From Bdellovibrio sp. (GTDB taxonomy: Bacteria; Myxococcota; SpSt-1050), in the NCBI GenBank assembly GCA_020725805.1, contig DYEF01000070.1:11676-75675 (forward strand): a stretch of 64,000 bases of DNA, written 5' to 3'. Positions 4,723 through 56,089 of the stretch are shown one piece after another. The notes below the pieces were generated by a model, which saw only the letters and a program-made list of their open reading frames with translations, was not told the DNA's origin and made no database searches. The position numbers were made by a program, and so were the translations under genes. The number at the start of each line of letters is the position of its first letter. The first letter of the stretch is position 1.

Positions 4723-5127
4723 ATGAAACGCAGAATATTATTTGTCGCGTTTATTACCGCAATTACTCTCTTCTCCTGTACCGCTACGGATTCAGGCACA
4801 ACAACCGATTCGTCGAACCTTAACGACAGGAATTCCTGCAACAACGACTTTAATGCTATTTCACAGGAAATAAATAAGGCAGCAGCTAAATATAATGACT
4901 GCCAGACGAATGAGGAGTGCAAAATTGCCTATATCGACATTAAATGTCTTTCGACCTGTCCGATGGCAATTAATACAGATAAAATGAAGTACTTCGAGGA
5001 AGAGCTCGAAAAGATCTCAGACAGCTATTGCATCGATGACTGCAAAGCATCTGCCAATTGCGAAATAAGAGAACCCGAATGCCAGAACAATAAATGCGTA
5101 ATGGTGATAAAGAATCCCGGCACATAA
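4723..5127 (+). CDS. small Cys-rich lipoprotein
   Basis: AGGAGG 8 nt upstream. Lipobox ITLFSCTA. 134 aa with 12 Cys in C-x3-C and C-x-C arrangements. Confidence 0.65.
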   Translation: MKRRILFVAFITAITLFSCTATDSGTTTDSSNLNDRNSCNNDFNAISQEINKAAAKYNDCQTNEECKIAYIDIKCLSTCPMAINTDKMKYFEEELEKISDSYCIDDCKASANCEIREPECQNNKCVMVIKNPGT

Positions 5128-11819: not shown

Positions 11820-11838
11820 TATAAACCTCCTTAAAATA

Positions 11839-12336: not shown

Positions 12337-12355
12337 CTGATTCCTCCTAATAAAA

Positions 12356-13198: not shown

Positions 13199-13349
13199 AG
13201 ATTCTTTCTCCATCAGTTTGCCGGTTTCCATTATGCCATATAATACCTCTATGTCAATTGACTTTTAATTTACCCCGGGAATACCCCGAAATGCATCGTA
13301 AATCCAAAGACGAAGTACAGAAGCAAAACCTCCGGATGATTTTTTTTAT

Positions 13350-39074: not shown

Positions 39075-39995
39075 CTAAAAAGTGGCTGAAATATATAAAC
39101 AGTTTCCATCAAAACCGGCAGAGACTTTATTGTTCTCCCTGCTGACCTCTTTGCCTCCCAGCAGCAGATAGAGAATTCCGCCTGTTATTAGTGCCCCGCC
39201 GGCGATATAGGATATCACCGCATTGCGGTTATTGTCTTCACGTTCCTGATTATATTTTTCGGCTGTATCCGCCGTGCTTTTCTTATACTTATCATCGGCG
39301 TCGATAGCAGATTTTGTGAAATATCCACCCACAGCCAGACCTACAACGCCGGTCCCCAGAAGGGAATATCCGACCCAGTTAATACCTTGGCCGGTCCTGA
39401 CTTCTGTCTCCTTTTTCACAGCTGGCTCCGGTGCAGCCGTCTTGGGAGTCTTTTCTGCCTTACTCACTTCGTCCTTCAAAACAGCAGGTTTGGTATTAAT
39501 ATCAAACAATTTCAATACTATACCTTTTGTCCCTTTGATGAGTTCATTTTCATCCTTCTTTATCAGCTCGGTTACTCTCTTTTCCACAACAGCCTTCATA
39601 ACATTTATCAGTTTGAGATTAACAAGATAATTGTCTCCCATCGTACCGATTGAACCAATAACATAATATTCAGCTCCCATTGCACCGGCTATCTGTGCCA
39701 TACAACTGGAATCCGTACAGTTCTTGAGCTGCTTATTGGTCTCCCAGAAGAGCATCTTGTCGAGATCGTTCTGGCCTATGACATTATACCTGTCGATATT
39801 GGCTATCTCTGTCAGAATAAACTCGGTCAGAAGATTTGCCGAACCCGGTTCAACTCCCTTTTCCGGTGATATATTGAAAACAATCAGAGTCGGTCTGTCC
39901 TCCTTTTTATCTTTCTCATTCTTTGCCGCACCTGTCTGGGCAAAGGCGTAAGATACGAGGAACATTAAAAGGATTACATATATCTTTCCTGTCAT
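39075..39995 (-). CDS. exported protein with LpoB/CsgG-like periplasmic fold and C-terminal 2-TM hairpin (hypothetical)
   Basis: Signal peptide. C-terminal IDADDKYKKS...ISYIAGGALITGG module shared with 12356..13198. Transcribed divergently from kinase gene 40165. Confidence 0.55.
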   Translation of the reverse strand: MTGKIYVILLMFLVSYAFAQTGAAKNEKDKKEDRPTLIVFNISPEKGVEPGSANLLTEFILTEIANIDRYNVIGQNDLDKMLFWETNKQLKNCTDSSCMAQIAGAMGAEYYVIGSIGTMGDNYLVNLKLINVMKAVVEKRVTELIKKDENELIKGTKGIVLKLFDINTKPAVLKDEVSKAEKTPKTAAPEPAVKKETEVRTGQGINWVGYSLLGTGVVGLAVGGYFTKSAIDADDKYKKSTADTAEKYNQEREDNNRNAVISYIAGGALITGGILYLLLGGKEVSRENNKVSAGFDGNCLYISATF

Positions 39996-40164
39996 TGATT
40001 CCTCCTGTCCGCTGTATTTTAAGTACTATTCTACACATAATAAGTCAAATATTTTATTGTTATGCCACAACTTAACCGACACCAAGGATATTTGGCGTAT
40101 TAAAGATTTGACTTTAAATAGTTAAACGAATAAGGTATGTCACAATTGTCATAGTGGTTGGATT

Positions 40165-42012
40165 ATGAATATTGACAGCAGATATCAGATTCTGGAAAAG
40201 GCCGGCTCCGGCGGTATGGCCGCGGTATACAGGGCACGGGATACCGTATTAAACAGGGATGTTGCGGTAAAAGTCCTCCATCCGCATCTGATTGAAAAAG
40301 AGGAGGTCAAAAAGAGATTTCTGAGGGAGGCACAGGCAATCGCCCGGCTCAGACACAAAAATATCATTGAAATATATGATTACAAATCAGACTCCTCAGA
40401 CTGCTATATAATCAGTGAATTTATTAAAGGTAAAAATCTCGGCACATTCCTGTCCGAATACGACATATCTTCACCGTTTATAGCCGCTATGATTATATCT
40501 GTCCTTGCAGATGCAATAGGACACGCACATAAAAACAATGTCATACACAGAGACCTGAAACCTGAAAATATCCTTATATCCGAAAACTATCAGTTAAAGA
40601 TTGCCGATTTCGGAATTGCACATATAGCGGACGCAGAAAGTCTTACAATAACAGGCTCTATTTCGGGCTCCCCTGCACATATGTCTCCCGAGCAAATCGA
40701 CGGAAAGGATGTGGATTTAAGAACCGATATATTCTCCCTCGGCACAATACTATATCTCATTTCCTGCGGAGAACTCCCTTTTAAGGGGAACTCTCCGGCC
40801 TCTATCTTCAAATCTATACTTATGGGGGAATATAAGGAGCCGAAGGAACTCAATCCTTTAATTGACAGCAGATTCTCTGCAATAATACAGAAATGCCTGA
40901 AGAAGAATCTGGCCGAACGTTACAGCAGCACAGAAGAGCTCAAAGCAGAGCTCAATGATTATCTGAAAGGATACGGAATTACCAATACAGAGCAGAATCT
41001 TCAGAAGTTTTTTCAGGAACCGATCGAATATCTCGATGAACTCAACAAAAAGATTGCCGGACACCTCAAGGAATATCTCTACAAGAACATACATAACACA
41101 GAAAGCAGAATTCAGATTCAGGATTACCTGAATATCCTTCTGTACCTTGCACCCGATGACGATGATGCAAAGGCCATATTTGAGAGATTCTCTTCCCTTG
41201 AAGATTCAGAGAGAAGGTCAAAAAGGATAAAATCAGTCCTTCTGGCAAGCGCAATATTCCTTCTTATGGCTTTTATTGTCTTCAACGCAGTCTCCTATTA
41301 TAAAAGGATACCTGACTCAAACACAAAGCCGGCGGAGAATACGGTTGCAGTTACACCTGATGACAAATATCCCGATGTCCATACAACCCCATCGGAGGAA
41401 GACAAGATAATATCAACCGGAAATGAATCAGAAAGAACAGAAGAAAAGTCAGAAGAGGAGATGGTACTGAAAAAACCAAAGCGGAAGATTGCCCGTCCAC
41501 AGTCAGCAAGGGAGAAAAGCCAGAGTAGTGATGAAAAGGAAGAAAGTACAATTCCCAGATTCGGGGAACTCAACCTGTTTGTAAAACCTTACGGCGATAT
41601 ATATATCAATAATCAACTTGCAGGCAGGGAAAAGGCAACCCTCAATATCAAACTTAAGAGCGGAAAGCACTTTATCAGGGTCAAAAACCCCTTCTTCTTC
41701 GATATAGAAAAGGAAATCAGCATAGAGCCGGATTCGAAGACCGACCTCAGACTGGTATTTGACAATATTAAACCTGCAAAATTATTTATTAACACTTCCC
41801 CAGAATGTGATATATATATTGACGGCAACCTTCTGGGACGGAGTGATATGTATACTAAGAGTGGTATTACTATTCCTATAAATACCAAGGACGGAAGACG
41901 TGAAATACTCCTTAAGGCGTCAAAGGCAGGATACAAAGACTATATCAGGAAGATAGAGCTGACCGCAGGTGAAGCCAGAACTTTAAAAATCAACCTTACC
42001 AAAGAAAAATGA
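40165..42012 (+). CDS. Hanks-type Ser/Thr protein kinase with TM helix and C-terminal PEGA-like domains
   Basis: GSGGMAAVY loop. VAVKVL. HRDLKPENILI. DFGIA. SPEQ. TM LLASAIFLLMAFIVFNAV. C-terminal LNLFVKPYGDIYINNQLAGRE and LFINTSPECDIYIDGNLLGRS. Confidence 0.9.
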   Translation: MNIDSRYQILEKAGSGGMAAVYRARDTVLNRDVAVKVLHPHLIEKEEVKKRFLREAQAIARLRHKNIIEIYDYKSDSSDCYIISEFIKGKNLGTFLSEYDISSPFIAAMIISVLADAIGHAHKNNVIHRDLKPENILISENYQLKIADFGIAHIADAESLTITGSISGSPAHMSPEQIDGKDVDLRTDIFSLGTILYLISCGELPFKGNSPASIFKSILMGEYKEPKELNPLIDSRFSAIIQKCLKKNLAERYSSTEELKAELNDYLKGYGITNTEQNLQKFFQEPIEYLDELNKKIAGHLKEYLYKNIHNTESRIQIQDYLNILLYLAPDDDDAKAIFERFSSLEDSERRSKRIKSVLLASAIFLLMAFIVFNAVSYYKRIPDSNTKPAENTVAVTPDDKYPDVHTTPSEEDKIISTGNESERTEEKSEEEMVLKKPKRKIARPQSAREKSQSSDEKEESTIPRFGELNLFVKPYGDIYINNQLAGREKATLNIKLKSGKHFIRVKNPFFFDIEKEISIEPDSKTDLRLVFDNIKPAKLFINTSPECDIYIDGNLLGRSDMYTKSGITIPINTKDGRREILLKASKAGYKDYIRKIELTAGEARTLKINLTKEK

Positions 42013-42695
42013 ATATCTATCAGGTTATTATTATTTTTTCACTTGCACTCAACCAGACCGACGACGACCTGTTTAAGAAGGGAATTTATCTGTTTGAGCA
42101 TCAGGATTTCAAACAGTCTGTTCAGGTATTCAGCAAAATAATAAACAACAATCTTGCAAAGGACGAAAACGAACTCGCCGAATGCTACAAATACACCGGA
42201 GCAGCCTATTTCTATCTGGAAGACTATAAAGCCGCAGAGGCCAGTTTCAGGCAACTGCTCTTTTTAAGACCGGAGACAAAACTGGACCCGTTTCTCTTCC
42301 CCCCTTCGATGGTCCTCTTTTTCGACAAAATAAAGAAAGATATGCCCAGACCTCCGAAAAAGGAGGCAGAGGTGACACAACGGAAGGGAAAATACAATAT
42401 TTATGTAAACCTGCTCCCCTTCGGACTGCCTCAGTACGCACAGGACCGGAAAGCCAAAGGGACAATATTGCTTGCAATGCAGGTCCTCTCACTTGGCACC
42501 AACATCTATTCCTACTGGCAGGTTCAGTCAATGATAGACAGATACGGTTATGTTAAGAATCAGGAGGATGCGGACAGGGCAAATCTCCTCAAGACCGTTC
42601 AGATAGCCTCTCTCATTGCATTCGGGACAATATACATCTATTCTGTTGCTGACGGAATGTATTATTCACTGAAAGATACAAAAGGAGGAAACTGA
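42009..42695 (+). CDS. TPR-like/2-TM membrane protein (paralog module of 12356..13198)
   Basis: ATGA overlap with kinase stop. KLDPFLFPPSMVLFFDKIKK parallels DIDPDYTLSPSVSPKLREPFAKVKK in 12356..13198. Two C-terminal TM helices. Confidence 0.6.
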   Translation: MNIYQVIIIFSLALNQTDDDLFKKGIYLFEHQDFKQSVQVFSKIINNNLAKDENELAECYKYTGAAYFYLEDYKAAEASFRQLLFLRPETKLDPFLFPPSMVLFFDKIKKDMPRPPKKEAEVTQRKGKYNIYVNLLPFGLPQYAQDRKAKGTILLAMQVLSLGTNIYSYWQVQSMIDRYGYVKNQEDADRANLLKTVQIASLIAFGTIYIYSVADGMYYSLKDTKGGN

Positions 42696-42697
42696 AA

Positions 42698-44461
42698 ATG
42701 CCGTTTATTGAGGTCAAAAACAGGATTACAGGGAATTTCAGGACATACGAAATTAAAAAGAGGATAACGTCAATCGGAAGTTCACAGGAATGTGATATTG
42801 TGCTGGAAGACAAGAAACTTCCAAAGCACTTTGCAAACATATTCTCTGACGGACATTCATATACCCTGCAGGTGGCATCAAGCGATCAGGAATTCCTTTA
42901 CGAAGGCAAACCGGCAAGACGAAAGAAACTGCAGGAAAACGTACCCGCAGAAATAGGGAATTTTATCATCTCCTTTGTCTATGAAAGGAGAAAGCAGGAA
43001 CCAAAAGAGAGCGGGGCAAAAAAGGATATTTACAAGATTCTCTTCGAGACCTCGACAAGACTGATGTCCGACTTCAGACTCGATACCTTCCTGAACAACC
43101 TTACAGACGCCCTGATAACACTTACAAAGGCCGATAAAGGTTTCATTATTATCTTCAGGGAGAATACACTTGATATAATGGTTGCACGTGGTCTGGATGG
43201 CAAGAATTTCACAAATCCCCGGGAACTCATTTCGGATTCAGTCATCGAGAAGGTAATCAGCACCAAAAAACCACTGATTATCAACGATGCCATGAACGAT
43301 ACAGAGTTCAAAATGAGCGTATCCGTAATAAATCTGAAACTCTGCTCTATAATATGCGTGCCGCTCATATATCAGGGCAATATTCTGGGACTTATCTATC
43401 TCGGGAATGACAATATCGCCAATCTCTTCGACCAGACCTCACTTGAGGTAATTACAATATTTGCATCACAGGTCACACTCCTTTTGAAATCAGCCCTTCA
43501 TATAGACAGACTTGAAAAAGACCTCGACATAAGAAATCTCAGCAACATTATTTATGCAAGTCCCTATATGACGGAGATTATGGAAAAGATGCGCAAGGTA
43601 GCGCAGACCGACGTAACTGTCCTCATCGAGGGTGAAACAGGTACCGGAAAGGAGATTCTCGCAAGGGAGATTCACAATAATTCTCCCCGCAAAAACGGTC
43701 CTTTTGTAGCAATTAACTGTGCGGCCATACCGAAAGACCTTCTGGAGAGTGAACTCTTCGGACATACCAAAGGTGCGTTCACCGGTGCCGTATCCACAAG
43801 AGAAGGGAAATTCCAGCTTGCATCAGGGGGGACACTCTTTCTGGATGAGATAGGAGATATGCCTGTCCATCTGCAGGCAAAACTTCTGCGCGCACTTCAG
43901 GATAAAATCGTAACCAAGGTAGGCTCGAACACACCCGAGGAGACAGATGTGAGAATCATCTGCGCAACGAATCAGAATCTTGATGAGCTCGTAAAAAACA
44001 AAAAATTCAGACAGGACTTATATTACCGCGTAAATGTCGTCAGATTCTATCTGCCTCCGCTGAGAGACCGCGGAGAAGATATAATGCTGATTGCAAAATA
44101 TTTTCTCCAGAAATTCAGAAAAGAGTACAATTCACCCGTCGAGGGATTTTCAATAAGTGCCGTAAAGGTTATCAACAATTATCCCTGGCCGGGTAATATC
44201 AGGGAGATGGAGAACAGAATAAAAAAGGCCGTAATCCTGTCAAAACACCCTCTCATAGAAAAGGAGGACCTTGAACTGACGGAGGAATCGGAGACACCCA
44301 TTCTGCCGCTCGCACAGGCAAGAGAGGAGTTTCAGCGGAGATATATCCTTCAGGCACTAAGGAAGAACGGCGGTAACAGGACAAAGACAGCAAAGGACCT
44401 CGGAGTAGACCCGAGGACGATTTTCAGATATCTTGAGGACATTGACGACGAGACGATATGA
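42698..44461 (+). CDS. sigma54-dependent enhancer-binding protein with N-terminal FHA and GAF domains
   Basis: FHA-like N-terminus (...[17 protein letters not shown]...). GAF. AAA+ with GETGTGKE Walker A and GAFTGA sigma54 contact loop. C-terminal Fis-type HTH. Confidence 0.9.
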
Positions 44462-45030
44462 CTAAATTGCCGCAAATCAGTGCAGTTAAAGGTCAAAAGA
44501 ATACCAACAGATTACCGGCTGTGTTAAGATTGGTATCTGCTATGGCTCTTCTATCCTTTACATCAACTTTCTGTGTAGATACACCGGAGATACGTCTTTT
44601 AGAGGTGAACAACAGACCACCGCTTATCAACAAATCCAAAATAAGCCCTGACAGCCCTGTAGTCAAGATCGACTCTCTCTGCAAAAAGGAATTCGGTTTC
44701 TCCGAGGTAACAGAGCTTGATACAGAGGATATGCTCTATGTCAGATGGTATGTTGACTATGAATATATCAAGAATTATCAGAAGGGTTCTGTAATACCGC
44801 CGCCCGACAAGAAGAATATTATCAGGGGCGGGGACAGTTTCATTCTGGACCTGAAGAATTCCATTCTGCCCTCCAAATCAAGAGGTTCGGTTCATACGGT
44901 GGAGGTCATTCTATCGGACAGACCCTTTTTGCTTGATTCGACAGAACCGCCCCCCTTCAAGGCTGTCGAGAAGGGTGGCAATTTTGACTATATTTCCTGG
45001 ACGGTGATTCAGATTGAAGACTGCTATTAG
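44458..45030 (+). CDS. hypothetical exported protein/lipoprotein
   Basis: ATGA overlap with the EBP stop. Hydrophobic N-terminus AMALLSFTSTFCVD. Confidence 0.5.
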   Translation: MTKLPQISAVKGQKNTNRLPAVLRLVSAMALLSFTSTFCVDTPEIRLLEVNNRPPLINKSKISPDSPVVKIDSLCKKEFGFSEVTELDTEDMLYVRWYVDYEYIKNYQKGSVIPPPDKKNIIRGGDSFILDLKNSILPSKSRGSVHTVEVILSDRPFLLDSTEPPPFKAVEKGGNFDYISWTVIQIEDCY

Positions 45031-46519
45031 ATATCTTTTTGCCATTTATCTGCTTCTGCTGACATCCTGCAGTGATACTGCAAGTATGAATACCCCTAAA
45101 AACAGCTGTTTCGTAATCGGCGGGTGTGACAGAGAATACTACAACCTCGACAGGGTTTTCATCAGACTCAATGTAAATATCGAAAAAAAATTTCAGATAT
45201 CCCGCCTGACCAGACACAACATAACAGACGGTAACAGCATCAGCATCACCCTGCCCCGTTTATACAGCATCTGCGGAAAGGTCATATACTCGGAATCTCC
45301 TGTCTATGCCACAATCAGATTCATACCGGAAAATTCAGAACTGCTTCTGCCTCCCGTCAACGCAGAGACGGATAAAAGCGGGAGTTTCTGTACAATGCTG
45401 CCGGAGGGTAATTATACAATCCTTATCTCACCGTATAAAAGTGATTCGATCCCGCAGCTGAAGACTACTGTCAAGGTAAATTCGGAGATACCGACACTGA
45501 CAATATTATACCCCTCACCCGAAAATGTAAGATATATCTACGGGAATGTAATACTCGATTCGAAGAGCGGAATCCCCGTCGAAGGAATAAATGTCCTTGC
45601 ATACAGGGAGTATGATAAAGGCATTACTCTTCAGTCGAATGTATCTGTAACGGACAGTGAGGGCAGATTTTCAATTATTGTTCCGACAAAAAGCGAGAGC
45701 TTTTCACTTATGCTCTATGGCTCGGAAAAAAACCCGGACTGGCCTGTTATCAAACTGCCCGACATTATCAGCGAAGAGATCGTACAGATAGGCACTATCA
45801 ATCTCGGCTTTGTACCCCCTCTCAGACATATCTCGGGGTCAGTTTCTGCTGAAAATAAAAACCGCATTATTGCTACAATGAACAGAAATGAATTTCTTTA
45901 TACAAAGACTTTTATTACTGATTCTGAAGGATATTTCGAAACCGACCTCAGAGAAGGAAGATACACATTTCTCATTATCCCGGAAGATATTCACAACAGT
46001 GAGTGGAGCATTACAAGCAGCACAGACATTACTGTACCTGACGCGGACATAAAGACAATCAGCATCGAAAGAAAAGTAGACCTTGAGGGGGTCATTCTTC
46101 CTTTGCAGAACAGATACACTCCGAAGATTAACATAAGACGTCTGGGTGGTTGCCTTCCCGAACAGAATGACAATATCAGTCTCGAATCATCGATATTGCC
46201 CGACAGCAACGGAAAATTCAAAGCACCTGTTCACTACGGGAAATACAGAATAGAAATCTCTTCCGATGACCCGCTCAGCGCCGGCCTGATATCCGAACCG
46301 ATGTGTATAGGAGAAAACACAAATCTGGGTCAGTTATTACTATCGGACTCCTGTGAACTTACAGTAAGACTGGAAAATCCGGACAATCTTTCTGTTTCAG
46401 CAATAAAGGCAGAAGTATTTATTTCGGATAAATCTGAAACAGATGTTGTAAAAATTTCGGAGAAGAGTACAGAGAGCCCTCTGATAAAACTGAAAGTACC
46501 GGGATACCTCTGCAGATAA
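45014..46519 (+). CDS. lipoprotein with repeated carboxypeptidase-regulatory-like (transthyretin-fold) domains
   Basis: Lipobox LLLTSCSD. Recurrent TDSEGRFSI / TDSEGYFET / DSNGKFKAPV motifs. Confidence 0.55.
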   Translation: MKTAIRYLFAIYLLLLTSCSDTASMNTPKNSCFVIGGCDREYYNLDRVFIRLNVNIEKKFQISRLTRHNITDGNSISITLPRLYSICGKVIYSESPVYATIRFIPENSELLLPPVNAETDKSGSFCTMLPEGNYTILISPYKSDSIPQLKTTVKVNSEIPTLTILYPSPENVRYIYGNVILDSKSGIPVEGINVLAYREYDKGITLQSNVSVTDSEGRFSIIVPTKSESFSLMLYGSEKNPDWPVIKLPDIISEEIVQIGTINLGFVPPLRHISGSVSAENKNRIIATMNRNEFLYTKTFITDSEGYFETDLREGRYTFLIIPEDIHNSEWSITSSTDITVPDADIKTISIERKVDLEGVILPLQNRYTPKINIRRLGGCLPEQNDNISLESSILPDSNGKFKAPVHYGKYRIEISSDDPLSAGLISEPMCIGENTNLGQLLLSDSCELTVRLENPDNLSVSAIKAEVFISDKSETDVVKISEKSTESPLIKLKVPGYLCR

Positions 46520-46522
46520 AAA

Positions 46523-47572
46523 TTATACAAAAAGCAGAATAATAAAGACTATTACAAGTAATGAAAATCCTATCGGCAGTCCGAGTTTTGCCCACTCCCG
46601 GGATTTGATTTTCAGTTTGCTTGCACAAATAATATTTGGGATATTTCCCGGGATGAGCATTACTCCCGACAGGAGAAGTCCGAGTAAGAGGTCCCTGACC
46701 TGCTCCTCCGACATCGCGGTACTTATCTCTGCGGCTGTAAGTGTTGCGTTATCGACCACGGCCGAAATCATATTTACCCAGTATAAAACCAGAGGAGAGA
46801 GTTTCAGGACATAATTATCGATTATTGGCTTAAATCCGTAACCAAGAAACACAAGGGCCATTACAAAGAGATATACCTTGAATGTCCTGAAGAAAATTTC
46901 TCTTACAGATTCTATCTTCTTCTCCTCGTCGGGAGATTCTGAAAGCGTATCCTCGGCATTGTGGCCTTTATAGAGCCCGGCGGCTATCCCGGAGAATAGA
47001 ACCAGCGGGATTATAAACGGACCGAGCAGTCTCAGAAGGTAGAAAAAATCCACCTGAGGCCAGGTCTTCAGTTTACTTATTGCGATTGTCGAGAGCGGTT
47101 CGCCTATCGGTGTCAGCGAAGCCCCGAGACCTATCGAGAGACAGGCAACAACGACATAAAACAGTTCGTGTTTGCGGTCCATTCTGAGGACATTGATAAT
47201 TTCCACGAGCACAAGCGATGCAATAATTGCGGTTATAATGCTCGAAATAAATCCCAGAATCACCACAACCAGAAACATAAAGAGACCAAACGGTATTCTC
47301 TTCAATGAGAAGAAAACGAGGTCTTTCAGATATTTGTGTGTATATTTGAATACGAATCCGGCAATAAGAACCGCCAGAGATATCTTTATCGGTTCGTGCA
47401 AACCTTCCATGATAATATCCAGATGGAGGCTCTTCGTAACAACCAGTGAAAGCACTCCCATCAGAAAAAGGAAAATCTCGAGATTCTCCTCAACCTTATG
47501 AAAGATAAAAGGAAGGAAAAGGACCATCAGCAAAATCACAGAGAGAGCTGCTATTACAAATGTACTGACCAT
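46523..47572 (-). CDS. polytopic membrane protein, DUF1646-like putative cation transporter
   Basis: About 10 TM helices. No recognisable catalytic motif. Confidence 0.5.
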   Translation of the reverse strand: MVSTFVIAALSVILLMVLFLPFIFHKVEENLEIFLFLMGVLSLVVTKSLHLDIIMEGLHEPIKISLAVLIAGFVFKYTHKYLKDLVFFSLKRIPFGLFMFLVVVILGFISSIITAIIASLVLVEIINVLRMDRKHELFYVVVACLSIGLGASLTPIGEPLSTIAISKLKTWPQVDFFYLLRLLGPFIIPLVLFSGIAAGLYKGHNAEDTLSESPDEEKKIESVREIFFRTFKVYLFVMALVFLGYGFKPIIDNYVLKLSPLVLYWVNMISAVVDNATLTAAEISTAMSEEQVRDLLLGLLLSGVMLIPGNIPNIICASKLKIKSREWAKLGLPIGFSLLVIVFIILLFV

Positions 47573-47585
47573 TTAATACCTCAAC

Positions 47586-48281
47586 TTATTCCTTGATGTT
47601 AAAATGAAATCTGCTGCCCACAATAATTGCAAACACAGTCGTGGAAGGTGTCTTTTCCATTTCGTGCGTAATATCCTTATCCCAGTCGTAATAGAATTTT
47701 GAGTACGAAGGGAAATAGAAACTGAGGTCCAGAAATAATGAAAACCAGTTTTTGATATACACATCAGTGCCAAGACCTGTCTCAAAAAAACCACCTGCTA
47801 TTGCCTTCGACTGCTTTTCGGGAAACCCCCACTCCTCAACATTCATACCTATCATTGAATATCCGCCGCCCAGAAAAACATACGGGTCAATAAAATAATC
47901 CTTCTTCCAGTGATTGAGAGGATGATATTTTGCAATCCCTGATACAAATCCTCCGCCTTTACGTTCCCCCTTCGAAGTAATATCCGACCCTGTAAAATTC
48001 AGTTTCAGTTCAACGGATGCGTAGTTCATTATATTATAACCCATATTGAAATCCAGAGCAAACATACCGCCAAGATCGGTCGAGACAATATCCGTTGTGG
48101 CCTCTTTCTGTGCATTGCCGCTGATTATCACAACAGGATAATTATTCTTGTATATTACTTCGGAGGGCATCTGTTCGCCGAAAAAGATATCGCTGCCGAG
48201 ACCAAGTGACACATAAAAACCCTCTTTGGCATAGACATTTACGGAGCATAAAATGAGAAAAAAGAAAACGGCTTTCTTCAT
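47586..48281 (-). CDS. small outer-membrane beta-barrel protein (OmpA/OmpW-like barrel)
   Basis: Signal peptide MKKAVFFFLILCSVNVYA. Ends ...RFHFNIKE with alternating pattern. Confidence 0.55.
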   Translation of the reverse strand: MKKAVFFFLILCSVNVYAKEGFYVSLGLGSDIFFGEQMPSEVIYKNNYPVVIISGNAQKEATTDIVSTDLGGMFALDFNMGYNIMNYASVELKLNFTGSDITSKGERKGGGFVSGIAKYHPLNHWKKDYFIDPYVFLGGGYSMIGMNVEEWGFPEKQSKAIAGGFFETGLGTDVYIKNWFSLFLDLSFYFPSYSKFYYDWDKDITHEMEKTPSTTVFAIIVGSRFHFNIKE

Positions 48282-48286
48282 ATACT

Positions 48287-49603
48287 TTACCTCGTAAAAA
48301 GTCTGACTAATCTGCTTTCAAGAAGGTTAAGATAATCAGACCTCCAGAAAGCAGGCTTGAGTGAATATAATACAGAATCCAGACTTCCTGCAAGCAAATA
48401 GATACCTGCCTTTTTTATAATGGAAGGTCTCTTAATCAGTTTCAGACCTCTTCTCAATGTCAATACCACATTCTCGGGATTAATAATAGGTTTGTTGTCA
48501 AATACATACCGTATGCTCACCGGATTGATAACAAGGTCAAAGAGAATCCCTGTATCATATCTGTCAGCCTCCTCAATTATTCTGCGAAAGAACGTCATCA
48601 GGGCATATCGCTGCGATATAACATTGTTGAATCTTCCCTGAAATGAATAAGGTGAGTCTGTTTTAAGGGACTCAATCAGCATCTCGGAAGCAGTAATGAT
48701 TGTCGATATACCGGATGCGCACATAGGATATATCATCGATGCCGAATCGCCGATACTGAAAACACCATCTTTAAATAGTCTGAGAAAAGGTCTTCTTACA
48801 GGAATTATTCCTCCTCCTCCGGCAACCGGCTTTACTGAAGTACCGAATTCCTTTTTTACAATCTCCGATATCCTCTTCGGTATATCCCTGTCATTTCCTC
48901 CGCACAATATTTCGACTGTTTCATTCCTGATATCCGGAAAGATGGCTGTCGTATTAAATCCTCCGTTCTCCGACAATCTCAGCACTGCCGAATCAGAGGC
49001 AAGTCTGTGCCTGTCGTAGAATCCTGAAATCGCACTACCCTTTACGTCAAATTTCAGTCTGTAGGCATAAATATAATCAGCATCTGACATCTCGTCACGG
49101 AAAAAATTCTTCCTCACCGGTGAACCGGCACCTGTGCAATCGATAACGTATCTCGACCTGAGACTCATTTTTCCACGGGGTGTCTTTATCTGTACAGAAA
49201 CCCCGCCGGCCTCCGGAAGAACCTCTCTCAGTTCGGAATTAAACCATATTTCTGCTCCTGACCCGATTGCTGCATCCCGGAGATTTTTTACCAGTTTTTT
49301 CATATCAACCGATCTGACAATCTTTTGTGTATCGAAATAAAATGCAGTATTTCCTGACTGATCCAGAACAGCCGTAATCTCCGGAGTAAAATTTTCAGGA
49401 ACATCTATATTATTGAGCAACCCGCTCTGAAGGGACCAGATAGGAATATCGTTCGTCCAGATTGTTCTGATATAATTCTGATTACCCTTTTCAAGACAGA
49501 ATACACTGAAACCGGATTTCGAAAGATTATATGCAAGGAGTGCACCCGAAACACCCGCTCCGGCGATTACAACATCATAGTCGGCTCCCGATATAGCTTT
49601 CAT
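48287..49603 (-). CDS. FAD-dependent oxidoreductase (geranylgeranyl-reductase/halogenase-like family)
   Basis: DVVIAGAGVSG dinucleotide motif. GD motif region ...SIGDSASMIYP. Confidence 0.65.
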   Translation of the reverse strand: MKAISGADYDVVIAGAGVSGALLAYNLSKSGFSVFCLEKGNQNYIRTIWTNDIPIWSLQSGLLNNIDVPENFTPEITAVLDQSGNTAFYFDTQKIVRSVDMKKLVKNLRDAAIGSGAEIWFNSELREVLPEAGGVSVQIKTPRGKMSLRSRYVIDCTGAGSPVRKNFFRDEMSDADYIYAYRLKFDVKGSAISGFYDRHRLASDSAVLRLSENGGFNTTAIFPDIRNETVEILCGGNDRDIPKRISEIVKKEFGTSVKPVAGGGGIIPVRRPFLRLFKDGVFSIGDSASMIYPMCASGISTIITASEMLIESLKTDSPYSFQGRFNNVISQRYALMTFFRRIIEEADRYDTGILFDLVINPVSIRYVFDNKPIINPENVVLTLRRGLKLIKRPSIIKKAGIYLLAGSLDSVLYSLKPAFWRSDYLNLLESRLVRLFTR

Positions 49604-51742: not shown

Positions 51743-52017
51743 TACAAAGCCTCCTTAATAAATTGATAATATCGCCTATCACAAATGACGCAATGTGTCA
51801 AGGTTTTTCCAGGAGAGACGTCTTTGCAGGTCGGCGGGGTATGGAACTTTACCTAAAATTTTTAATTCAAAAATGAATGATTGTAAACTAAAAAACTATT
51901 TACATTAATTCCGTTTTCTATTAGAAAGTTTATATTGTAAAACGTTCTCATCAGATAAATTTAGGTTTACAAAGACACCAATATACAATATAAGACCATT
52001 ATATTTTGGAGGAGATT

Positions 52018-55000
52018 ATGAAATATATTCTCTATACCTGCTTCTTCCTTTCCGGAATGGCTGGACTTATATATCAAGTTGTATGGTCGAAATATTTTAA
52101 TCTCTTTTTAGGTGCCACCTCTTATTCAACAGCAATCCTCCTCTCCACATTTATGGGTGGACTTGCCCTCGGCAATCATATATTTGGGAAATTTGTTGAC
52201 AGAACAAAAAATCCTCTGAGATTATATTCGTTTCTCGAGTTCGGGATAGGGATTGCATGCACTCTGTTTCCTCTTTATTTCGATGGGCTTTTTAATCTCT
52301 ATTTTGCCCTTGCTCAGGGTTCAATCCCAAATACTTTCGGGAATATAATTCTGAAAATACTATTTAGCGTTATCACGATTCTTCTGCCTACCACACTTAT
52401 GGGCGGGACACTCCCGGTAATGAGCAAATTTATCATAAAACAGATTAAGGATGTAGGGGCCAAGGTCGGACTCTTATATTTTCTAAATACTGTTGGGGCA
52501 ATTATAGGAACACTCATAGGTGGATATTTCATTATCCACACACTCGGACTTGATTTTTCAGTTCAATTATTCTCCTTTGTAAATTTAGCAATTGGGATTG
52601 TAACCTACTATCTGAGCAAGCGAGTAAGTGAAGATTTTACAATTTCTCAGGCAGACAGCACAACTGAAAAGGAGGAGGAGAATTCTGAAATCACCTATTC
52701 GGAATCACAGATAAAAATTGTTCTTATAATGATTGGATTGAGCGGATTTGTATCAATGTTGTATGAGGTAGTATGGACAAGGATGCTGGCACTAATAATC
52801 GGTTCGGCTGTTCAGTCATTTGCAATAATGCTCTTTACATTTATAACGGGGATTGCTGCCGGTTCCTTCGTAATCCATAGAGCGATGAACAGGCGAATCA
52901 ATCACCTGTTCTGGTTTGCAATAACCGAATTTATGATTGCCATAACAATTATTATTGTTCTGCCTTTATATATGCGGCTCCCGTACTACTTTAACATTAT
53001 AGGAGGAAGCATCCCCAAGACAGAAGGGATGTTTATCTTTTATGAAATTTCGAAGATAATTATATGTTTTATTGCGATGTTTTTGCCCACCTTCTTTATC
53101 GGAATGACGTTACCTCTCGCAAGTCATATAAATACAAAGAGCATAACAAAACTCGGAATCGGGATTGGTGATACATTTTCGGTAAATACACTTGGTAATC
53201 TTGTCGGCTCTCTGGTTGCAGGTTTTATTCTCCTCCCTCAAATAGGGATGGAGAACTCAATGAAGACTGGTATAATAATTAATCTTATCATAGCAGTGAT
53301 ACTGTTTTTCTCATCAGGTATTAAAAAGGTCATTAATATTGCGCCTATAATAATAACAGTACTGGTATCAGTATTTCTTTTAAACTACCAGTTTATCGAC
53401 AAAGAATATATTCAACGAGGAAATTTCAGGCTAAGAAACCGTTATGCCAAAACATTTGAAAATTTTCTGAAAGTTAAAGACCACGAAAAGTTGATATTTT
53501 ATAAAGAAGGGAAAGGCTCTCTTGTATCCGTTACGAAGTCACCAAAAGGGATACTGTCTCTAAGAATAAACGGAAAACCGGACGCAAGTACCGGCTTTGA
53601 TATGCCAACACAGATATGGTGTGGTCATATCGGCGTTCTTTTGCATCCTAAACCGGAGGATGTATTCCTCCTCGGGATGGGTAGTGGTGTTACAGGCGGC
53701 GTTCTCTCCACCCATAAAGAGATAAAAAACATAGAACTGCTTGAGATCTCAAAGGAGGTTATTGAGGCAGCCGAATTATTTAAGGAAGCAAACTATGACA
53801 TATTAAACAACAAGAAAGTTAAAATAATAAATGCCGATGGGAGAGAATATCTGAGACTGAATCCTCAGAAAAAATATGATATTATCATCTCGGAGCCATC
53901 AAACCCGTGGATGGCCGGAGTTGCCAATTTATTTACAGTACAATATTTTGAAGAAGTAAAATCTCACCTTAAAGAAGATGGCCTATTTGTTCAGTGGTTT
54001 CAGGCATATGAAACCAACGATAAGATTCTGAATATTATGTTTAATACCCTCGGCAGAGTCTTTGAATACGCCTATGTCTTTGCCCCTGCACAGCTCGATC
54101 TTTTAATAGTCGGCTCTGATAAACCTATCACATTTGACCAGAAGAGAATCATTGAAAAATTCAGCGACCCGCTTTTTCTCAATACAGTAAAAGACAAAAA
54201 TTCGCTCGGTATTCCCGATACTATTCCCAAGTTCGTCTCAATGAATCTTATCGGAGAAAACCGGTTCAGAACATATTACGGCAGAGGTGAAGATGACCTG
54301 ATAGTAAATGAAGATAAATTTCCTGTTATAGAATATGAAGCGCCAAAGGCCTTTTTTGTCGGAAGGACATCCAATGTAATCTTTTCGATAGCAGAGACCA
54401 ATGTCAGTTATGAGTACAGCAGATTACCATCAAAAACTCTTATTAAAGATATAATAAAAAGTATGGACACCAATCAGATTTTAGAATTTATAAAATCCTC
54501 CGAAATCAGGGGACAGAAGCAGGTTGCGAGGTCCGGATTCAGTTATATATTGGATAACAATCTGGATACAGAAAATATATTTGTCATCAACAACTACCCC
54601 GAACTTCTGGCATATCACACATTTCTCACAAACTTTCCACAAACTCCGGAAAACTACACTCAGGACAAATGCAATAACATATCAGGAATAATAAGAAAGT
54701 ATATCGAACTCACCACATCAATATTTTATCAGAGCCAGAATACAGCAATCCTGTCGCATATGAATAAGTGTCTCAATGCCGCTCAGGACAGAGATACCCT
54801 TAGTAATCTTCAGAGGGCATATTTTACCCTCGGAGATACTACAGGACTGGAAAATGCAACACAAAAAATGCTTTCATCAGGCCAGATTACAGAGAAGGAT
54901 AAGACAGGTGTTATCTCGTCACTGATAAAACATTATTATTACAAAGACAATTTTGCGAAAGCAAAGGAGTTGCTGAGCAGTATTAACACAGATGATTTGA

Positions 55001-55047
55001 AGGATGCCGAACTATTATCCATTGTCAAAGACCTGAAAAACAGATGA
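52018..55047 (+). CDS. fused membrane / spermidine-synthase-like (PABS) protein with C-terminal TPR-like region
   Basis: GGAGGAG upstream of MKYILY. N-terminal SGMAGLIYQVVWSKYF hallmark of membrane-fused spermidine synthase-like proteins. PABS core ...LGMGSGVTGG...IINADGREYL...YDIIISEPSNPW. Confidence 0.8.
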   Translation: MKYILYTCFFLSGMAGLIYQVVWSKYFNLFLGATSYSTAILLSTFMGGLALGNHIFGKFVDRTKNPLRLYSFLEFGIGIACTLFPLYFDGLFNLYFALAQGSIPNTFGNIILKILFSVITILLPTTLMGGTLPVMSKFIIKQIKDVGAKVGLLYFLNTVGAIIGTLIGGYFIIHTLGLDFSVQLFSFVNLAIGIVTYYLSKRVSEDFTISQADSTTEKEEENSEITYSESQIKIVLIMIGLSGFVSMLYEVVWTRMLALIIGSAVQSFAIMLFTFITGIAAGSFVIHRAMNRRINHLFWFAITEFMIAITIIIVLPLYMRLPYYFNIIGGSIPKTEGMFIFYEISKIIICFIAMFLPTFFIGMTLPLASHINTKSITKLGIGIGDTFSVNTLGNLVGSLVAGFILLPQIGMENSMKTGIIINLIIAVILFFSSGIKKVINIAPIIITVLVSVFLLNYQFIDKEYIQRGNFRLRNRYAKTFENFLKVKDHEKLIFYKEGKGSLVSVTKSPKGILSLRINGKPDASTGFDMPTQIWCGHIGVLLHPKPEDVFLLGMGSGVTGGVLSTHKEIKNIELLEISKEVIEAAELFKEANYDILNNKKVKIINADGREYLRLNPQKKYDIIISEPSNPWMAGVANLFTVQYFEEVKSHLKEDGLFVQWFQAYETNDKILNIMFNTLGRVFEYAYVFAPAQLDLLIVGSDKPITFDQKRIIEKFSDPLFLNTVKDKNSLGIPDTIPKFVSMNLIGENRFRTYYGRGEDDLIVNEDKFPVIEYEAPKAFFVGRTSNVIFSIAETNVSYEYSRLPSKTLIKDIIKSMDTNQILEFIKSSEIRGQKQVARSGFSYILDNNLDTENIFVINNYPELLAYHTFLTNFPQTPENYTQDKCNNISGIIRKYIELTTSIFYQSQNTAILSHMNKCLNAAQDRDTLSNLQRAYFTLGDTTGLENATQKMLSSGQITEKDKTGVISSLIKHYYYKDNFAKAKELLSSINTDDLKDAELLSIVKDLKNR

Positions 55048-55525: not shown

Positions 55526-56089
55526 TTAGTCGTTGTCCACATCATTGCACTGGTTCGGGTCAGCCGCTAAAGCACCTGCTGCTCCGTTTACACCAATGGT
55601 GATCTTCGCATTGATTATCTGGTTGGCCTGGTCGATATTCCACATATCCTCTTTGGGCTCGCCGTCAACATTGCCGTAAGCTGCATAGACAAAGTTGAAC
55701 TGTGTCGGAGCCTGGGCTGCGTATGCACAACCACCGCAGAGGTTTGCACCAGTGCAGAGAGCACCTGTTGCATCACAGGCAATTGTGTCACCGGCAAAAC
55801 CTGACACATATGCATATCTTCTGTTCTTTTCAGGAGCAAACCCCATCGGAATCTTACCAGCGCCAGTCAGGTTAAAGACCAATGTTGCGTATGTGTTGGT
55901 CTCGGCAAACTTTGATTTGGCTGCCGTGAATGCTGCCTTCAGGTTGGTCCTTGCCTCTGACTGCTTTGACCTTGCCTGGAACCTGATAAAGTTCGGGATT
56001 GCCACTGCGGCAAGAATACCGATGATCGCCACCACGATCATGAGCTCGATCAGGGTAAATCCCTTCTTGGTTCTGAGTAACCTTAGCAT
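55526..56089 (-). CDS. type IV pilin (prepilin N-terminal methylation domain)
   Basis: KKGFTLIELMIVVAIIGILAAVAIP class III signal. Cys pair near the C-terminus. GGAGG RBS. Confidence 0.85.
   Translation of the reverse strand: MLRLLRTKKGFTLIELMIVVAIIGILAAVAIPNFIRFQARSKQSEARTNLKAAFTAAKSKFAETNTYATLVFNLTGAGKIPMGFAPEKNRRYAYVSGFAGDTIACDATGALCTGANLCGGCAYAAQAPTQFNFVYAAYGNVDGEPKEDMWNIDQANQIINAKITIGVNGAAGALAADPNQCNDVDND

Follow-up and report, generated by a model that had tools for sequence, protein, structure and literature searches.

The window analyzed here, a continuous stretch of DNA of 64,000 nt, contains five adjacent genes that raise the question whether a membrane Ser/Thr kinase, a sigma-54 activator with a forkhead-associated (FHA) domain, and two lipoproteins form one signaling circuit. 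Such a circuit, independent of two-component logic, had been proposed in an earlier sequence-only reading. Its parts were assessed by profile and structure searches, comparison of related loci, and analysis of the intergenic DNA.

Gene content and organization of the locus

An ORF scan of the window recovered the five co-directional, tightly packed genes exactly where the sequence-only reading had placed them:

K, 40165–42012, plus strand: membrane Hanks-type Ser/Thr kinase, counterpart of Myxococcus xanthus Pkn4/PktD1 (Pfam, motifs, hydropathy, synteny)
T, 42009–42695, plus strand: membrane protein with a TPR-like domain (Pfam TPR_2, family alignment, hydropathy)
E, 42698–44461, plus strand: sigma-54 enhancer-binding protein (EBP) with FHA-fold, GAF, AAA+, and HTH_8 domains (Pfam, PDB profile, AlphaFold model)
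S, 44458–45030, plus strand: small exported protein, probably a lipoprotein, with one Ig-like beta-sandwich
C, 45014–46519, plus strand: lipoprotein with a TTG start and several carboxypeptidase-regulatory/transthyretin-like beta-sandwich repeats (Pfam)

K and T share an ATGA (4-nt overlap), as do E and S, and C overlaps S by 17 nt; overlaps of 4–17 nt, previously claimed for all junctions, do not extend to T and E, which are separated by a 2-nt gap with AGGAGG upstream. None of the five proteins contains a HisKA, HATPase_c, or Response_reg domain (Pfam). The gene upstream of K (39075–39995), which is divergent and encodes a protein with two transmembrane helices, is unrelated (Pfam, BLASTP): its proposed paralogy with T was rejected based on the BLASTP match (E = 0.067 over 30 aa). 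A genuine paralogue of the TPR-like domain of T is encoded at 12356–13231 on the minus strand (E = 1e-6).

To judge by its motifs, K looks like an active enzyme; by its domains it is a membrane Hanks kinase with PEGA domains outside the cytoplasm, as had been suggested. The kinase domain (Pkinase, 183.8 bits; aa 7–260, 40183–40944) has intact catalytic motifs (GSGGMAAV, VAVK, HRDLKPEN, DFG, and SPE), hydropathy analysis detected a single transmembrane helix (aa 358–376, 41236–41292), and PEGA (PF08308; 49.3 bits, cut-off 20.8) matched two stretches C-terminal to this helix, the better of which covers aa 478–534 (41596–41766). The kinase domain shares 44% identity with the pfk-adjacent kinase of a Myxococcaceae genome versus 31% with a kinase paralogue within the window. 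On the basis of these values and of its gene neighborhood, K is assigned to the Pkn4/PktD1 orthologous group (MXAN_4017). A phosphofructokinase HMM had no match anywhere in the 64-kb window.

T barely exceeds the TPR_2 cut-off (27.7 vs. 27 bits). Its N-terminus resembles a signal peptide, its C-terminus forms a hydrophobic hairpin according to hydropathy, and its TPR-like domain conserves the motif P(D/E)YxLDPF..PP; the family alignment also revealed the motif PFGxxQ(F/Y). A family HMM identified T between K and E in related loci (56 ORFs).

S and C are, from their sequence features, exported beta-sandwich proteins, but of the two lipoproteins expected only C is clearly one, with the signal peptide MKTAIRYLFAIYLLLLTS preceding the Cys of a canonical lipobox (LLTSC). 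The carboxypeptidase-regulatory-like repeats ascribed to one of them were confirmed in C (CarboxypepD_reg 46.3, CarbopepD_reg_2 33.7, and NOMO_5th 29.5 bits). S, which belongs to no Pfam family, has an invariant Cys39, Trp181, and C-terminal Cys189; the residue at position −1 to Cys39 is Phe in the window (TSTF before Cys) and variable among clade members, and is G, A, or S in most lineages. S is probably an exported lipoprotein.

The activator and its FHA fold

Judged by its domain content, E is a complete sigma-54 activator with an N-terminal FHA fold (aa 1–99, 42698–42994) and a GAF domain (aa 128–263, 43079–43486), followed by the AAA+ domain (aa 284–449, 43547–44044; GAFTGA at 43772–43789) and HTH_8 (aa 542–575, 44321–44422). 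Sigma54_activat matched with 246.7 bits, and AAA_lid_14, HTH_8, and GAF were also found. Walker A, the GAFTGA loop, and the HTH are all intact; within the family of FHA-GAF activators the HTH sequence is invariant and the GAF domain well conserved. No RpoN-box protein is encoded within the 64-kb window.

The N-terminus matched the FHA-like Pfam family Yop-YscD_cpl above its cut-off (38 bits), whereas FHA itself scored 19.4 bits, below its cut-off of 20.7. Nevertheless, the family profile retrieved GarA from the PDB (E = 1e-13), and the AlphaFold model of this domain (pLDDT 90) resembled OdhI, GarA, EmbR, and FhaA in Foldseek (TM 0.71–0.79), so that on the modeled structure E keeps the FHA beta-sandwich. 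The phosphopeptide-binding residues of FHA domains, which are the Arg of the GR motif, Ser and His of SxxH, and the Asn of NG, are replaced in E by Ser28, Pro42, Phe45, and Gln64, respectively (alignment to GarA, EmbR, and Dun1). None of the four is kept in any of 18 members of the window's clade, and family-wide retention amounts to 51% for Arg, 3% for Ser, 51% for His, and 11% for Asn (n = 194 family members). Retention of Arg shows no association with K-T, this residue being present in 16 of 39 loci that have these genes and in 9 of 15 that lack them. Hence, the FHA fold, the GAF domain, and the sigma-54 activator all exist as previously described, but the role of the FHA domain as phospho-threonine reader is not supported: a lack of conserved binding residues is what the sequence-only reading had itself named as refuting its circuit. 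Canonical phospho-threonine recognition by the fold is an unlikely input route, given these replacements.

Distribution and synteny in the Myxococcota

The FHA-GAF activator is encoded in the genomes of 369 species, and the best 80 of these 369 are all Myxococcota. In a synteny sample of 85 loci compiled with iterated HMMs, complemented by two further clade members, the order E-S-C was almost universal among genomes with the activator, and nearly all loci had C directly after S. K-T is located upstream of E-S-C in most lineages outside the Polyangiales and Sandaracinaceae, whose E-S-C genes have no adjoining K-T and no conserved upstream genes. The K-T-E adjacency is kept in deep lineages including the Bradymonadales, Kofleriaceae, and Myxococcaceae, and five loci contain K-T-E without S-C (L058, L061, L076, L083, and L085). 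Only the Myxococcaceae, the Archangiaceae, and Vulgatibacter have pfk as first gene before K, an arrangement published as pfk-pkn4 (MXAN_4016/4017). In Vulgatibacter and Anaeromyxobacter, as in the window's clade, the whole module is predicted to form a single fused transcription unit. Based on this recurrence across the Myxococcota, K-T-E-S-C is a functional unit, and by its gene order the window locus is a compact, fused version of a Myxococcota module (pfk)-pkn4(K)-T-EBP(E)-S-C, found from MXAN_4016 onwards in M. xanthus. To call the operon undescribed was an overstatement, as K is the counterpart of Pkn4/PktD1, and the literature already notes that synteny around pkn4 is conserved in myxobacteria (PMC2887360).

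Sigma-54 promoters and palindromes in related loci

Most relatives contain, exactly between E and S, a palindrome (TGACA-N4-TGTCA) approximately 67–101 nt upstream of a −24/−12 promoter with the consensus TGGCAnG-N4-TTGCT. With a threshold of at least 9 matches in 11 positions, the −24/−12 motif was found in 38 of 69 E-S spacers versus 2.8% of the control windows. Position 7, which lies outside the search pattern, is G in 76%, in agreement with the known sigma-54 consensus, and the conservation of the spacer in DNA alignments is element-like rather than codon-like. The palindrome occurs in 42 of 52 of these loci (3.8% of controls), and in 14 of 40 related loci it lies in front of K or pfk (1.9% of controls). 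As the loci are phylogenetically related, the enrichments of both the promoter motif and the palindrome reflect fewer independent events than the figures suggest. Palindrome-to-promoter spacings cluster at 67–70, 79–82, 89–92, and 99–101 nt, and the joint signature of palindrome and promoter occurs 37 times over all loci, 35 of these exactly between E and S. Because both elements directly follow the activator gene, S-C would be an E-regulated output in these relatives.

Some observations speak against this reading. The −24/−12 motif of the relatives lies very near to, or overlaps, possible start codons of S and signal-peptide coding sequence. In the Polyangia, the palindrome-promoter distances differ by multiples of three, which would also be compatible with coding sequence. 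Six Archangium-like loci have no palindrome, and their motif overlaps the sole plausible ATG.

Regulatory elements in the lineage of the window

The search for a sigma-54 promoter in front of the lipoprotein genes, which the sequence-only reading had suggested, yielded a different result for the window's own lineage. In the window and four other clade members, no −24/−12 promoter was found before S, before C, or anywhere else in the operon, and neither a −24/−12 promoter with an enhancer nor the joint signature occurs anywhere in the 64-kb window. The idea that the lipoproteins are a sigma-54 output thus fits most relatives, but not this lineage. Upstream of K, two elements were identified instead:

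Sigma-70-like promoter block, 40108–40136, plus strand: TTGACT, 17 nt, TAAGGT, read from the sequence
Palindrome variant TGTCACAATTGTCA, 40138–40151, plus strand: candidate operator for E, 9 of 10 matches to TGACA-N4-TGTCA

The promoter-like block has a −35 match of 5/6 but a weak −10 (3/6) and scores below the threshold of a consensus scanner; it is, however, one of only two blocks conserved among five clade members in the otherwise diverged spacer upstream of K. The palindrome variant covers the position at which transcription is expected to begin, lies 14 nt ahead of the ATG of K, and is the only palindrome match with at most one mismatch in the 64-kb window. It is conserved in the related loci L005, L006, L086, and L087. 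As a point against this candidate operator, the left half of the element in the window's clade deviates, with GTC-N6-GTC compared to the family core GAC-N6-GTC, whose A is present in 91% of the family sites; binding of E there is plausible at most.

Weighing of the alternatives

Taken literally, the circuit proposed earlier would have the PEGA kinase sense the envelope and autophosphorylate, the FHA domain of E read the phospho-threonine, and E activate sigma-54 promoters of this operon's own lipoprotein genes. The K-T-E adjacency with overlapping starts and stops, seen in the window as in many lineages, the FHA fold of E, and the sigma-54 promoter of S-C in relatives all agree with it; kinase/FHA-regulator gene pairs such as PknH-EmbR exist, and in M. 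xanthus, FHA-containing activators have reportedly been suggested to be targets of kinases. Yet the loss of all four binding residues in the clade, and of Ser and Asn in nearly the whole family, the lack of association between Arg retention and K-T, the missing −24/−12 motif in the operon of five clade members, and the 4-nt E/S overlap render this version improbable. K and E could also be co-located but unwired, with K being a Pkn4-type metabolic kinase that acts on phosphofructokinase or another enzyme, E responding to a small ligand of its GAF domain, the FHA fold serving as intramolecular or oligomerization module, and S-C representing the local regulon of E. The degenerate phospho-threonine site, the E-S-C loci of the Polyangiales and Sandaracinaceae, and the conserved GAF domain are consistent with this possibility, NorR being an established GAF-controlled activator. 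PexR is another (PMC12754779), and Pkn4 phosphorylates phosphofructokinase in M. xanthus according to two papers that cite this result (PMC6791715, PMC2887360). However, K-T-E are still translationally coupled although the window lacks pfk, their adjacency across deep lineages suggests that co-expression or interaction has been selected for, and the palindrome in front of K or pfk would place K under the same regulator as S-C; this explanation is possible but rather doubtful.

Alternatively, the lipoproteins might belong to the sensor instead of being outputs. Together with K (PEGA) and T (TPR-like), S (Ig-like) and C (transthyretin-like repeats) would then form an envelope-spanning complex that reports the state of the cell surface, and E would control the amount of this complex through feedback. 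Beta-sandwich or TPR modules outside the cytoplasm occur in all four proteins, PEGA and CarboxypepD_reg are both transthyretin-like folds, sensor components are often subject to feedback, be it positive or negative, and a single fused transcription unit is predicted for the clade, Vulgatibacter, and Anaeromyxobacter. In most lineages, however, S-C appear to be transcribed separately under control of E, a classic output arrangement, and some loci hold K-T-E without S-C, making a sensor complex of this kind a rather improbable solution.

The explanation that we prefer is a Myxococcota module with an E-driven sigma-54 output that was rewired in the window's lineage, and as a whole we judge its chances to be evenly balanced. 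In relatives, E would bind the palindrome, activate S-C from the sigma-54 promoter, and autoregulate its own operon via the same palindrome, a mode of action known from NtrC, PspF, and PexR of M. xanthus. The E-S spacer would have been lost in the window's lineage along with enhancer and promoter, leaving all five genes translationally coupled behind one sigma-70-like block with a palindrome variant, through which E most likely feeds back on the whole operon, probably negatively. Since its GAFTGA loop is intact, the sigma-54 targets of E in this lineage would be located elsewhere in the genome. That an envelope input passes via K and T to E is suggested by gene order alone. The remaining routes would be that E is phosphorylated directly, that its FHA fold docks independently of phosphorylation, or that its GAF domain binds a ligand. 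Against such wiring stand the documented Pkn4 substrate of M. xanthus, which is phosphofructokinase and not an activator, and the Polyangiales, which keep E-S-C without adjoining K-T. In its widest and more tentative form, which we consider conceivable but unlikely to hold in full, the rewiring model describes a phylum-wide, so far uncharacterized envelope-signaling regulon of the Myxococcota. K and T would control E through an FHA fold that does not read phospho-threonine, one palindrome (GAC-N6-GTC) would be both the enhancer for S-C and an operator on the operon of E, and the low-GC lineage of the window would represent a naturally rewired case, with deletion of the sigma-54 output and capture of S-C by the autoregulated sigma-70 operon.

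Comparison with known systems

The closest known counterpart is the pfk-pkn4 region of M. xanthus, with MXAN_4016 being pfkA and MXAN_4017 pktD1/pkn4. Phosphorylation of phosphofructokinase by Pkn4 (PMC6791715, PMC2887360) is the only function known to have been studied in M. xanthus, and no mention of MXAN_4018 or MXAN_4019 was found in the literature searched. Myxococcaceae loci with pfk before the kinase keep the order kinase-T-activator-S-C, as in the window, but the window lacks pfk, and its E and S genes are fused without an intervening sigma-54 promoter. Moreover, Pfam detects PEGA in K but finds none in the Myxococcaceae kinase.

FHA-domain enhancer-binding proteins of M. xanthus were reportedly described by Jelsbak, Givskov, and Kaiser in 2005, with the hypothesis that Ser/Thr kinases feed sigma-54 activators. 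These proteins share with E an N-terminal FHA fold fused to the sigma-54 AAA+ domain and HTH. In the E family, a GAF domain is present in addition, and the residues for binding phospho-threonine are missing from the FHA fold. In Mycobacterium tuberculosis, the kinase gene pknH adjoins the gene of the FHA-containing transcription regulator EmbR, resembling the window in that a membrane Hanks kinase is encoded beside an FHA-fold transcription factor. The EmbR structures 2fez and 2ff4 were matched by the FHA domain of E in PDB profile and structure searches, but the canonical Arg and Ser, which align with Ser28 and Pro42 of E, are retained in EmbR, and EmbR belongs to the SARP-type regulators rather than to the sigma-54 activators.

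NtrC and PspF of enterobacteria are dual-mode enhancer-binding proteins. E resembles such regulators in that the same palindromes would act as sigma-54 enhancer and as operator over a sigma-70-type promoter, both modes of E being deduced solely from sequence. PexR of M. xanthus (MXAN_1565) is one activator that acts on both promoter types, with a GAF regulatory input and ahpC and katB as targets (PMC12754779), but it differs from E in its targets and in having neither an FHA fold nor an adjoining kinase. An FHA fold without phospho-threonine-binding residues is also found in the cytoplasmic domains of the type III secretion proteins YscD, EscD, and PscD, and structural neighbors of the FHA fold of E include 4a0e, 4d9v, and 6uid. 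However, the family profile of E is closer to GarA, OdhI, and EmbR (E = 1e-13), and E is a transcription factor rather than a secretion ring protein.

Gene Layout and Domain Content of the Cluster

The sequence-only reading had proposed a five-gene operon on the plus strand. ORF calling confirmed five co-directional plus-strand ORFs at the proposed coordinates, listed here with the divergent neighboring gene and the letters used below:

39075-39995 (-): D, divergent gene
40165-42012 (+): K, membrane Hanks kinase with PEGA
42009-42695 (+): T, TPR-like membrane protein
42698-44461 (+): E, activator with FHA fold, GAF, and sigma-54 activation domains
44458-45030 (+): S, small Ig-like protein
45014-46519 (+): C, lipoprotein

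Start/stop overlaps, which had been assumed throughout, were found between K and T and between E and S (a shared ATGA at each junction) and between S and C (17 nt, with TTG as start codon of C), whereas T and E are separated by a 2-nt gap. E is preceded by AGGAGG. No strong plus-strand terminator was found inside the cluster, and the gene 3' of it is convergent.

Pfam searches assigned Pkinase (183.8 bits) and two stretches of PEGA (49.3 bits) to K, a marginal TPR_2 match (27.7 bits; cut-off 27) to T, Yop-YscD_cpl, GAF, Sigma54_activat (246.7 bits), AAA_lid_14, and HTH_8 to E, and CarboxypepD_reg-type repeats to C; the FHA model reached only 19.4 bits on E, below its cut-off of 20.7. S matched no Pfam family, and none of the five proteins received a specific NCBIfam name. 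K has the full set of catalytic motifs and a single transmembrane helix (aa 358-376), which places its PEGA part outside the cytoplasm.

The window is ordinary chromosomal DNA (GC about 42%) carrying ligA, a clpB-like gene, lpd, coaE, and two tRNAs. It also contains cyclic-nucleotide-type signaling genes (13386-14618(+), 23619-24665(-), and 57383-58138(-); GAF-HD, GAF-GGDEF, and PilZ-receiver), a type IV pilin gene (55526-56089(-)), and a gene at 52006-55047(+) for a 1013-aa protein that joins an MFS-like membrane domain to a spermidine/spermine synthase domain.

Distribution across the Myxococcota and Relation to the pfk-pkn4 Locus

The closest homologs of E (76-89% identity) are encoded by uncultured MAGs labeled "Deltaproteobacteria" or "Myxococcota," followed by a second tier (about 47-51%) in Vulgatibacter, Anaeromyxobacter, Archangium, Hyalangium, and Myxococcaceae. 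Scanning one genome per species yielded 369 relatives of the FHA-GAF part of E; the best 80 of these were all from Myxococcota, including Polyangiales, Sandaracinaceae, Kofleriaceae, Bradymonadales, Myxococcaceae, and Archangiaceae. ORFs were called in the related loci (designated L plus a number), and iterated HMM searches were run against them for phosphofructokinase and for all five cluster proteins individually. The order E-S-C was found in almost all loci where the extent of the contig allows. K-T lies directly 5' of E in most lineages and is missing there in many Polyangiales and Sandaracinaceae loci; the loci lacking K-T had no conserved upstream partner beyond close relatives. In L058, L061, L076, L083, and L085, K-T-E is not followed by S-C, and L061, L076, and L083 have a much larger ORF after E that weakly resembles the activator (about 220 bits).

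A phosphofructokinase gene 5' of K was found only in Myxococcaceae, Archangiaceae, and Vulgatibacter. This arrangement is the published pfk-pkn4 operon of M. xanthus, in which MXAN_4016 is pfkA (supplement of PMC6791715) and MXAN_4017 is pktD1, also named pkn4 (PMC3427377); among seven myxobacteria, the pkn4 region is the sole syntenic kinase region (PMC2887360). The kinase domain of K shares 44% identity with the Myxococcaceae kinase adjoining pfk and only 31% with the second PEGA kinase of the window, and no pfk was found within the window. Given this synteny and identity pattern, the cluster is the counterpart, in its lineage, of the M. xanthus MXAN_4017-4021 region. The literature searched contained no mention of MXAN_4018 or MXAN_4019. 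The second PEGA kinase, also a membrane Ser/Thr kinase (5134-7278(-); Pkinase 138.8 bits, PEGA 43.1 bits), has no adjacent activator.

The complete order K-T-E-S-C is kept in five members of the window clade (the window, L005, L006, L086, and L087) with E identities of 76-89%. Downstream of the cluster, 46523-49603(-) encodes a DUF1646 protein, a beta-barrel outer-membrane protein, and an FAD-dependent oxidoreductase. The same trio occupies the same position in L005; the oxidoreductase is missing from L087, which keeps the DUF1646 and barrel genes, and from L086, where DUF1646 is followed by an unannotated gene of similar size. This full or partial retention shows how closely related these MAGs are.

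The T, S, C, and D Proteins

T begins with a signal-peptide-like N-terminus. Next comes a TPR-like domain, marked by the conserved P(D/E)YxLDPF..PP....F, then a charged linker that is short in the window clade, the motif PFGxGQFxNG, and a hydrophobic hairpin. Outside the window clade, T carries a C-terminal extension ending in G-x-G-(L/A)-x-L-(S/G/D)-(F/Y) (L002, L003, L022, L035, L061, L074, and L078), which resembles the terminal aromatic signature of outer-membrane proteins and is missing from the window T. The TPR-like domain has a paralog in the N-terminal part of a 291-aa protein at 12356-13231(-) (BLASTP 1e-6; T-family HMM 1.6e-9). That gene is followed by genes for a 175-aa protein (11839-12366(-)) and a 1033-aa protein (8757-11858(-)), neither with a Pfam match; a weak C-family HMM match of the 175-aa protein was not confirmed by BLASTP, and it was rejected as a C-like protein.

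In S, the hydrophobic segment closes with an invariant Cys. The protein also has an NxPPxI motif, an invariant Trp, and a penultimate Cys. Its predicted model is an Ig-like sandwich (pLDDT 78) that matched only generic Ig-like neighbors and thus gave no indication of function. C is a lipoprotein built of transthyretin-like repeats.

D had been regarded as a paralog of T, an assignment that must be dropped since sequence comparison found the two unrelated. D combines a signal peptide and a weak LpoB-like domain with a hydrophobic hairpin at its C-terminus, and neither L005 nor L086 keeps it beside the cluster. The LpoB-like domain of D recurs in L008, from a groundwater MAG (2078-2743; E=1e-17), within a large Kelch-like protein that takes the place of the kinase 5' of T-E-S-C. 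In L086, a CsgG/DUF4810/GNA1162-like trio lies upstream of K.

A Conserved Palindrome and Candidate Sigma-54 Promoter between E and S in Relatives

The strongest new evidence for the interpretation of the cluster comes from its relatives and not from the window. A search running from 200 nt ahead of the E stop codon to the S start found a -24/-12 motif (TGGCAnG-N4-TTGCT) with at least 9/11 matches in 38/69 loci, compared to 2.8% of control windows of equal length drawn from the same set of loci. Column frequencies in percent were T88 G100 G100 C94 A61 n G76 n n n n T73 T100 G100 C100 T78; the G at position 7 was outside the search pattern, yet fits the established TGGCACG consensus. When aligned as DNA, 17 spacers showed element-like conservation of the palindromic cTGACA-N4-TGTCAcg, an A/T-rich dyad, the -24/-12 element, and, about 16 nt further on, an ATG followed by a short signal peptide. 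The palindrome, whose core is GAC-N6-GTC, was found with at least 8/10 matches in the 160 nt preceding the motif in 42/52 loci versus 3.8% of controls; since the loci share ancestry, neither these nor the motif counts represent independent events. The spacings between palindrome and motif cluster at 67-70, 79-82, 89-92, and 99-101 nt, with the caveat that the Polyangia spacing classes differ by multiples of 3. Searching all loci on both strands for the pair (palindrome at least 9/10, motif at least 8/11, 55-115 nt apart) gave 37 matches, 35 of them exactly between E and S. In 14/40 loci, versus 1.9% of controls, the palindrome alone was found in the 300 nt preceding the first gene, which is K or pfk. 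In Polyangia-type spacers (L009, L016, L021, L029, L036, and others) the A/T-rich dyad reads roughly GAAATC-N6-GATTTC and lies about midway between palindrome and -24/-12 element, the expected place of an IHF-type bending site.

As a further caveat, the motif always lies inside an open frame leading into S, in three phases (29, 17, and 5 loci). Constraint at the DNA level is favored by the motif's need for codons that are rare in 70% GC genomes (GCA, TTG, GCT, CTT), by an amino-acid reading that shifts with the phase while the DNA remains constant, and by stop codons between palindrome and S in lower-GC lineages. Sigma-54 promoters within coding sequence have been reported to be common in M. 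xanthus (PMC7910581). A conserved "L-T-x-M-S-R" upstream of S in Polyangia was considered as the S start and rejected, as the DNA alignment resolved it into the palindrome TGACAgcgATGTCA; lower-GC lineages have a stop codon between this region and S, and its translation in some lineages is possible. In six Archangium-like and Myxococcaceae loci (L066, L068, L069, L074, L077, and L084) the motif overlaps the ATG/GTG and first codons of S (M-A-G/R-x-L-L), this ATG being the only plausible one, and no palindrome was found upstream of the motif. In these genomes the motif is possibly a relic; alternatively, read-through transcripts may serve for the synthesis of S.

The HTH of E, containing (Y/H)LE, is invariant across the family, and GAFTGA is intact. 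On the simplest interpretation, E would bind the palindrome, activate S-C from the sigma-54 promoter, and autoregulate its own operon. The proposal that the lipoproteins are the output of E is thus upheld for the relatives, where the conserved enhancer and promoter would make S-C this output, but not for the window lineage.

Absence of the Promoter from the Window Lineage

In the five clade members with K-T-E-S-C, E and S overlap or nearly abut, and no -24/-12 motif was found; a fused E-S junction also occurs in Vulgatibacter and Anaeromyxobacter. Scanning the window with the sigma-54 consensus gave 6 matches of at least 9/11 compared to 4.0 in shuffled sequences, which is no excess. Between 38800 and 47800 no convincing sigma-54 promoter was detected even at 6/11 matches, and no pair of palindrome and -24/-12 motif was found in the window. 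A weak GG-N10-GC at 40078(-) was rejected as promoter of D, with 6/11 matches and no conservation in L005 or L006. The best sigma-54-like match of the window (TGGCAGATGCTTTGCA, 10/11, 5041-5056(-)) is probably due to chance: this sole apparently intergenic match at 5056(-) was discarded because it is antisense inside a small, unlisted plus-strand ORF (about 4724-5090) that begins with the lipoprotein signal MKRRILFVAFITAITLFSC. Nearby, imperfect 7-nt repeats at about 4594-4628 (minus strand AGTCCAC AGTCCAC AGTCGAC AGTCCAC AGAC) lie in the spacer upstream of 3235-4383(-).

Apart from one block, the clade's spacer 5' of K has diverged; this block is TTTG(A/T)CTTTAAAT, a few variable bases, and (A/G)GTATG(T/C)CAnAA(T/C)T(G/T)TCA. 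Its window version reads TTGACT-17 nt-TAAGGT, followed by TGTCACAATTGTCA at 40138-40151, the only match to the family palindrome with at most one mismatch in the 64 kb. As about 1.8 such matches are expected in the window by chance, the weight of this element rests on its position in the 169-nt spacer and on its conservation. It overlies the expected start site, where an operator would be placed. Its left half reads GTC instead of the family GAC (A in 91% of sites), so that, judged from the sequence, binding by E is plausible only. Regulation of both promoter types by one activator is known from M. xanthus PexR, which represses a sigma-A promoter and activates a sigma-54 promoter via related palindromes (PMC12754779). 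PexR was dismissed as the M. xanthus counterpart of E, being MXAN_1565 and lacking an FHA domain.

An FHA Fold without Phosphate-Binding Residues

A profile of the N-terminal 100 residues (21 family members) matched GarA, OdhI, EmbR, and FhaA with E-values of 1e-13 to 1e-10, and the AlphaFold model of the window domain (pLDDT 90) superposed on structures of these proteins with TM scores of 0.71-0.79. The predicted fold of the E N-terminus is therefore FHA; the model also superposes on YscD and PscD. HMMER alignments to Dun1, EmbR, and GarA placed Ser28 of the window E at the Arg of "GR," Pro42 and Phe45 at the Ser and His of "SxxH," and Gln64 at the Asn of "NG." Across 194 sequences aligned to the profile, the binding residues are retained in 51% (Arg), 3% (Ser), 51% (His), and 11% (Asn), and none of the 18 window-clade sequences retains any of them. 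Arg was retained in 16/39 loci with K-T versus 9/15 without, and its retention is not tied to the presence of the kinase.

The sequence-only reading had the FHA domain read phosphothreonine and had named loss of the binding triad beforehand as evidence to the contrary; this loss is what was found. Canonical phosphothreonine reading by E is unlikely in the window lineage and doubtful across the whole family, while the position of K next to E speaks for a functional link between kinase and activator. The label "FHA domain" alone thus does not equal "phosphothreonine reader," as this family keeps the fold and loses the binding residues. The sequence-only interpretation is partly right; with the promoter gone and these residues lost in the window lineage, the chain from sensing via phosphorylation and its reading to transcription is, as originally formulated, unsupported.

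Comparison with Known Systems

A link from Ser/Thr kinases to sigma-54 activators was proposed for myxobacteria two decades ago, and the concept of such kinases feeding FHA-containing sigma-54 activators is not new. Since the FHA fold is kept here without its binding residues, this link may work differently in the present family, or not at all. The main value of the cluster lies in sharp, testable predictions for the pkn4 region of M. xanthus, a genetically tractable organism: a defined activator binding site, a defined sigma-54 promoter before the MXAN_4020 counterpart, and an autoregulatory site upstream of the operon. The window cluster is no new kind of system: it is orthologous to a myxobacterial locus that is widespread and partly known. 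Should the comparative picture hold, pfk-pkn4 forms just the leading part of a conserved six-gene unit, whose so far unstudied rear part consists of an FHA-GAF sigma-54 activator and two lipoproteins.
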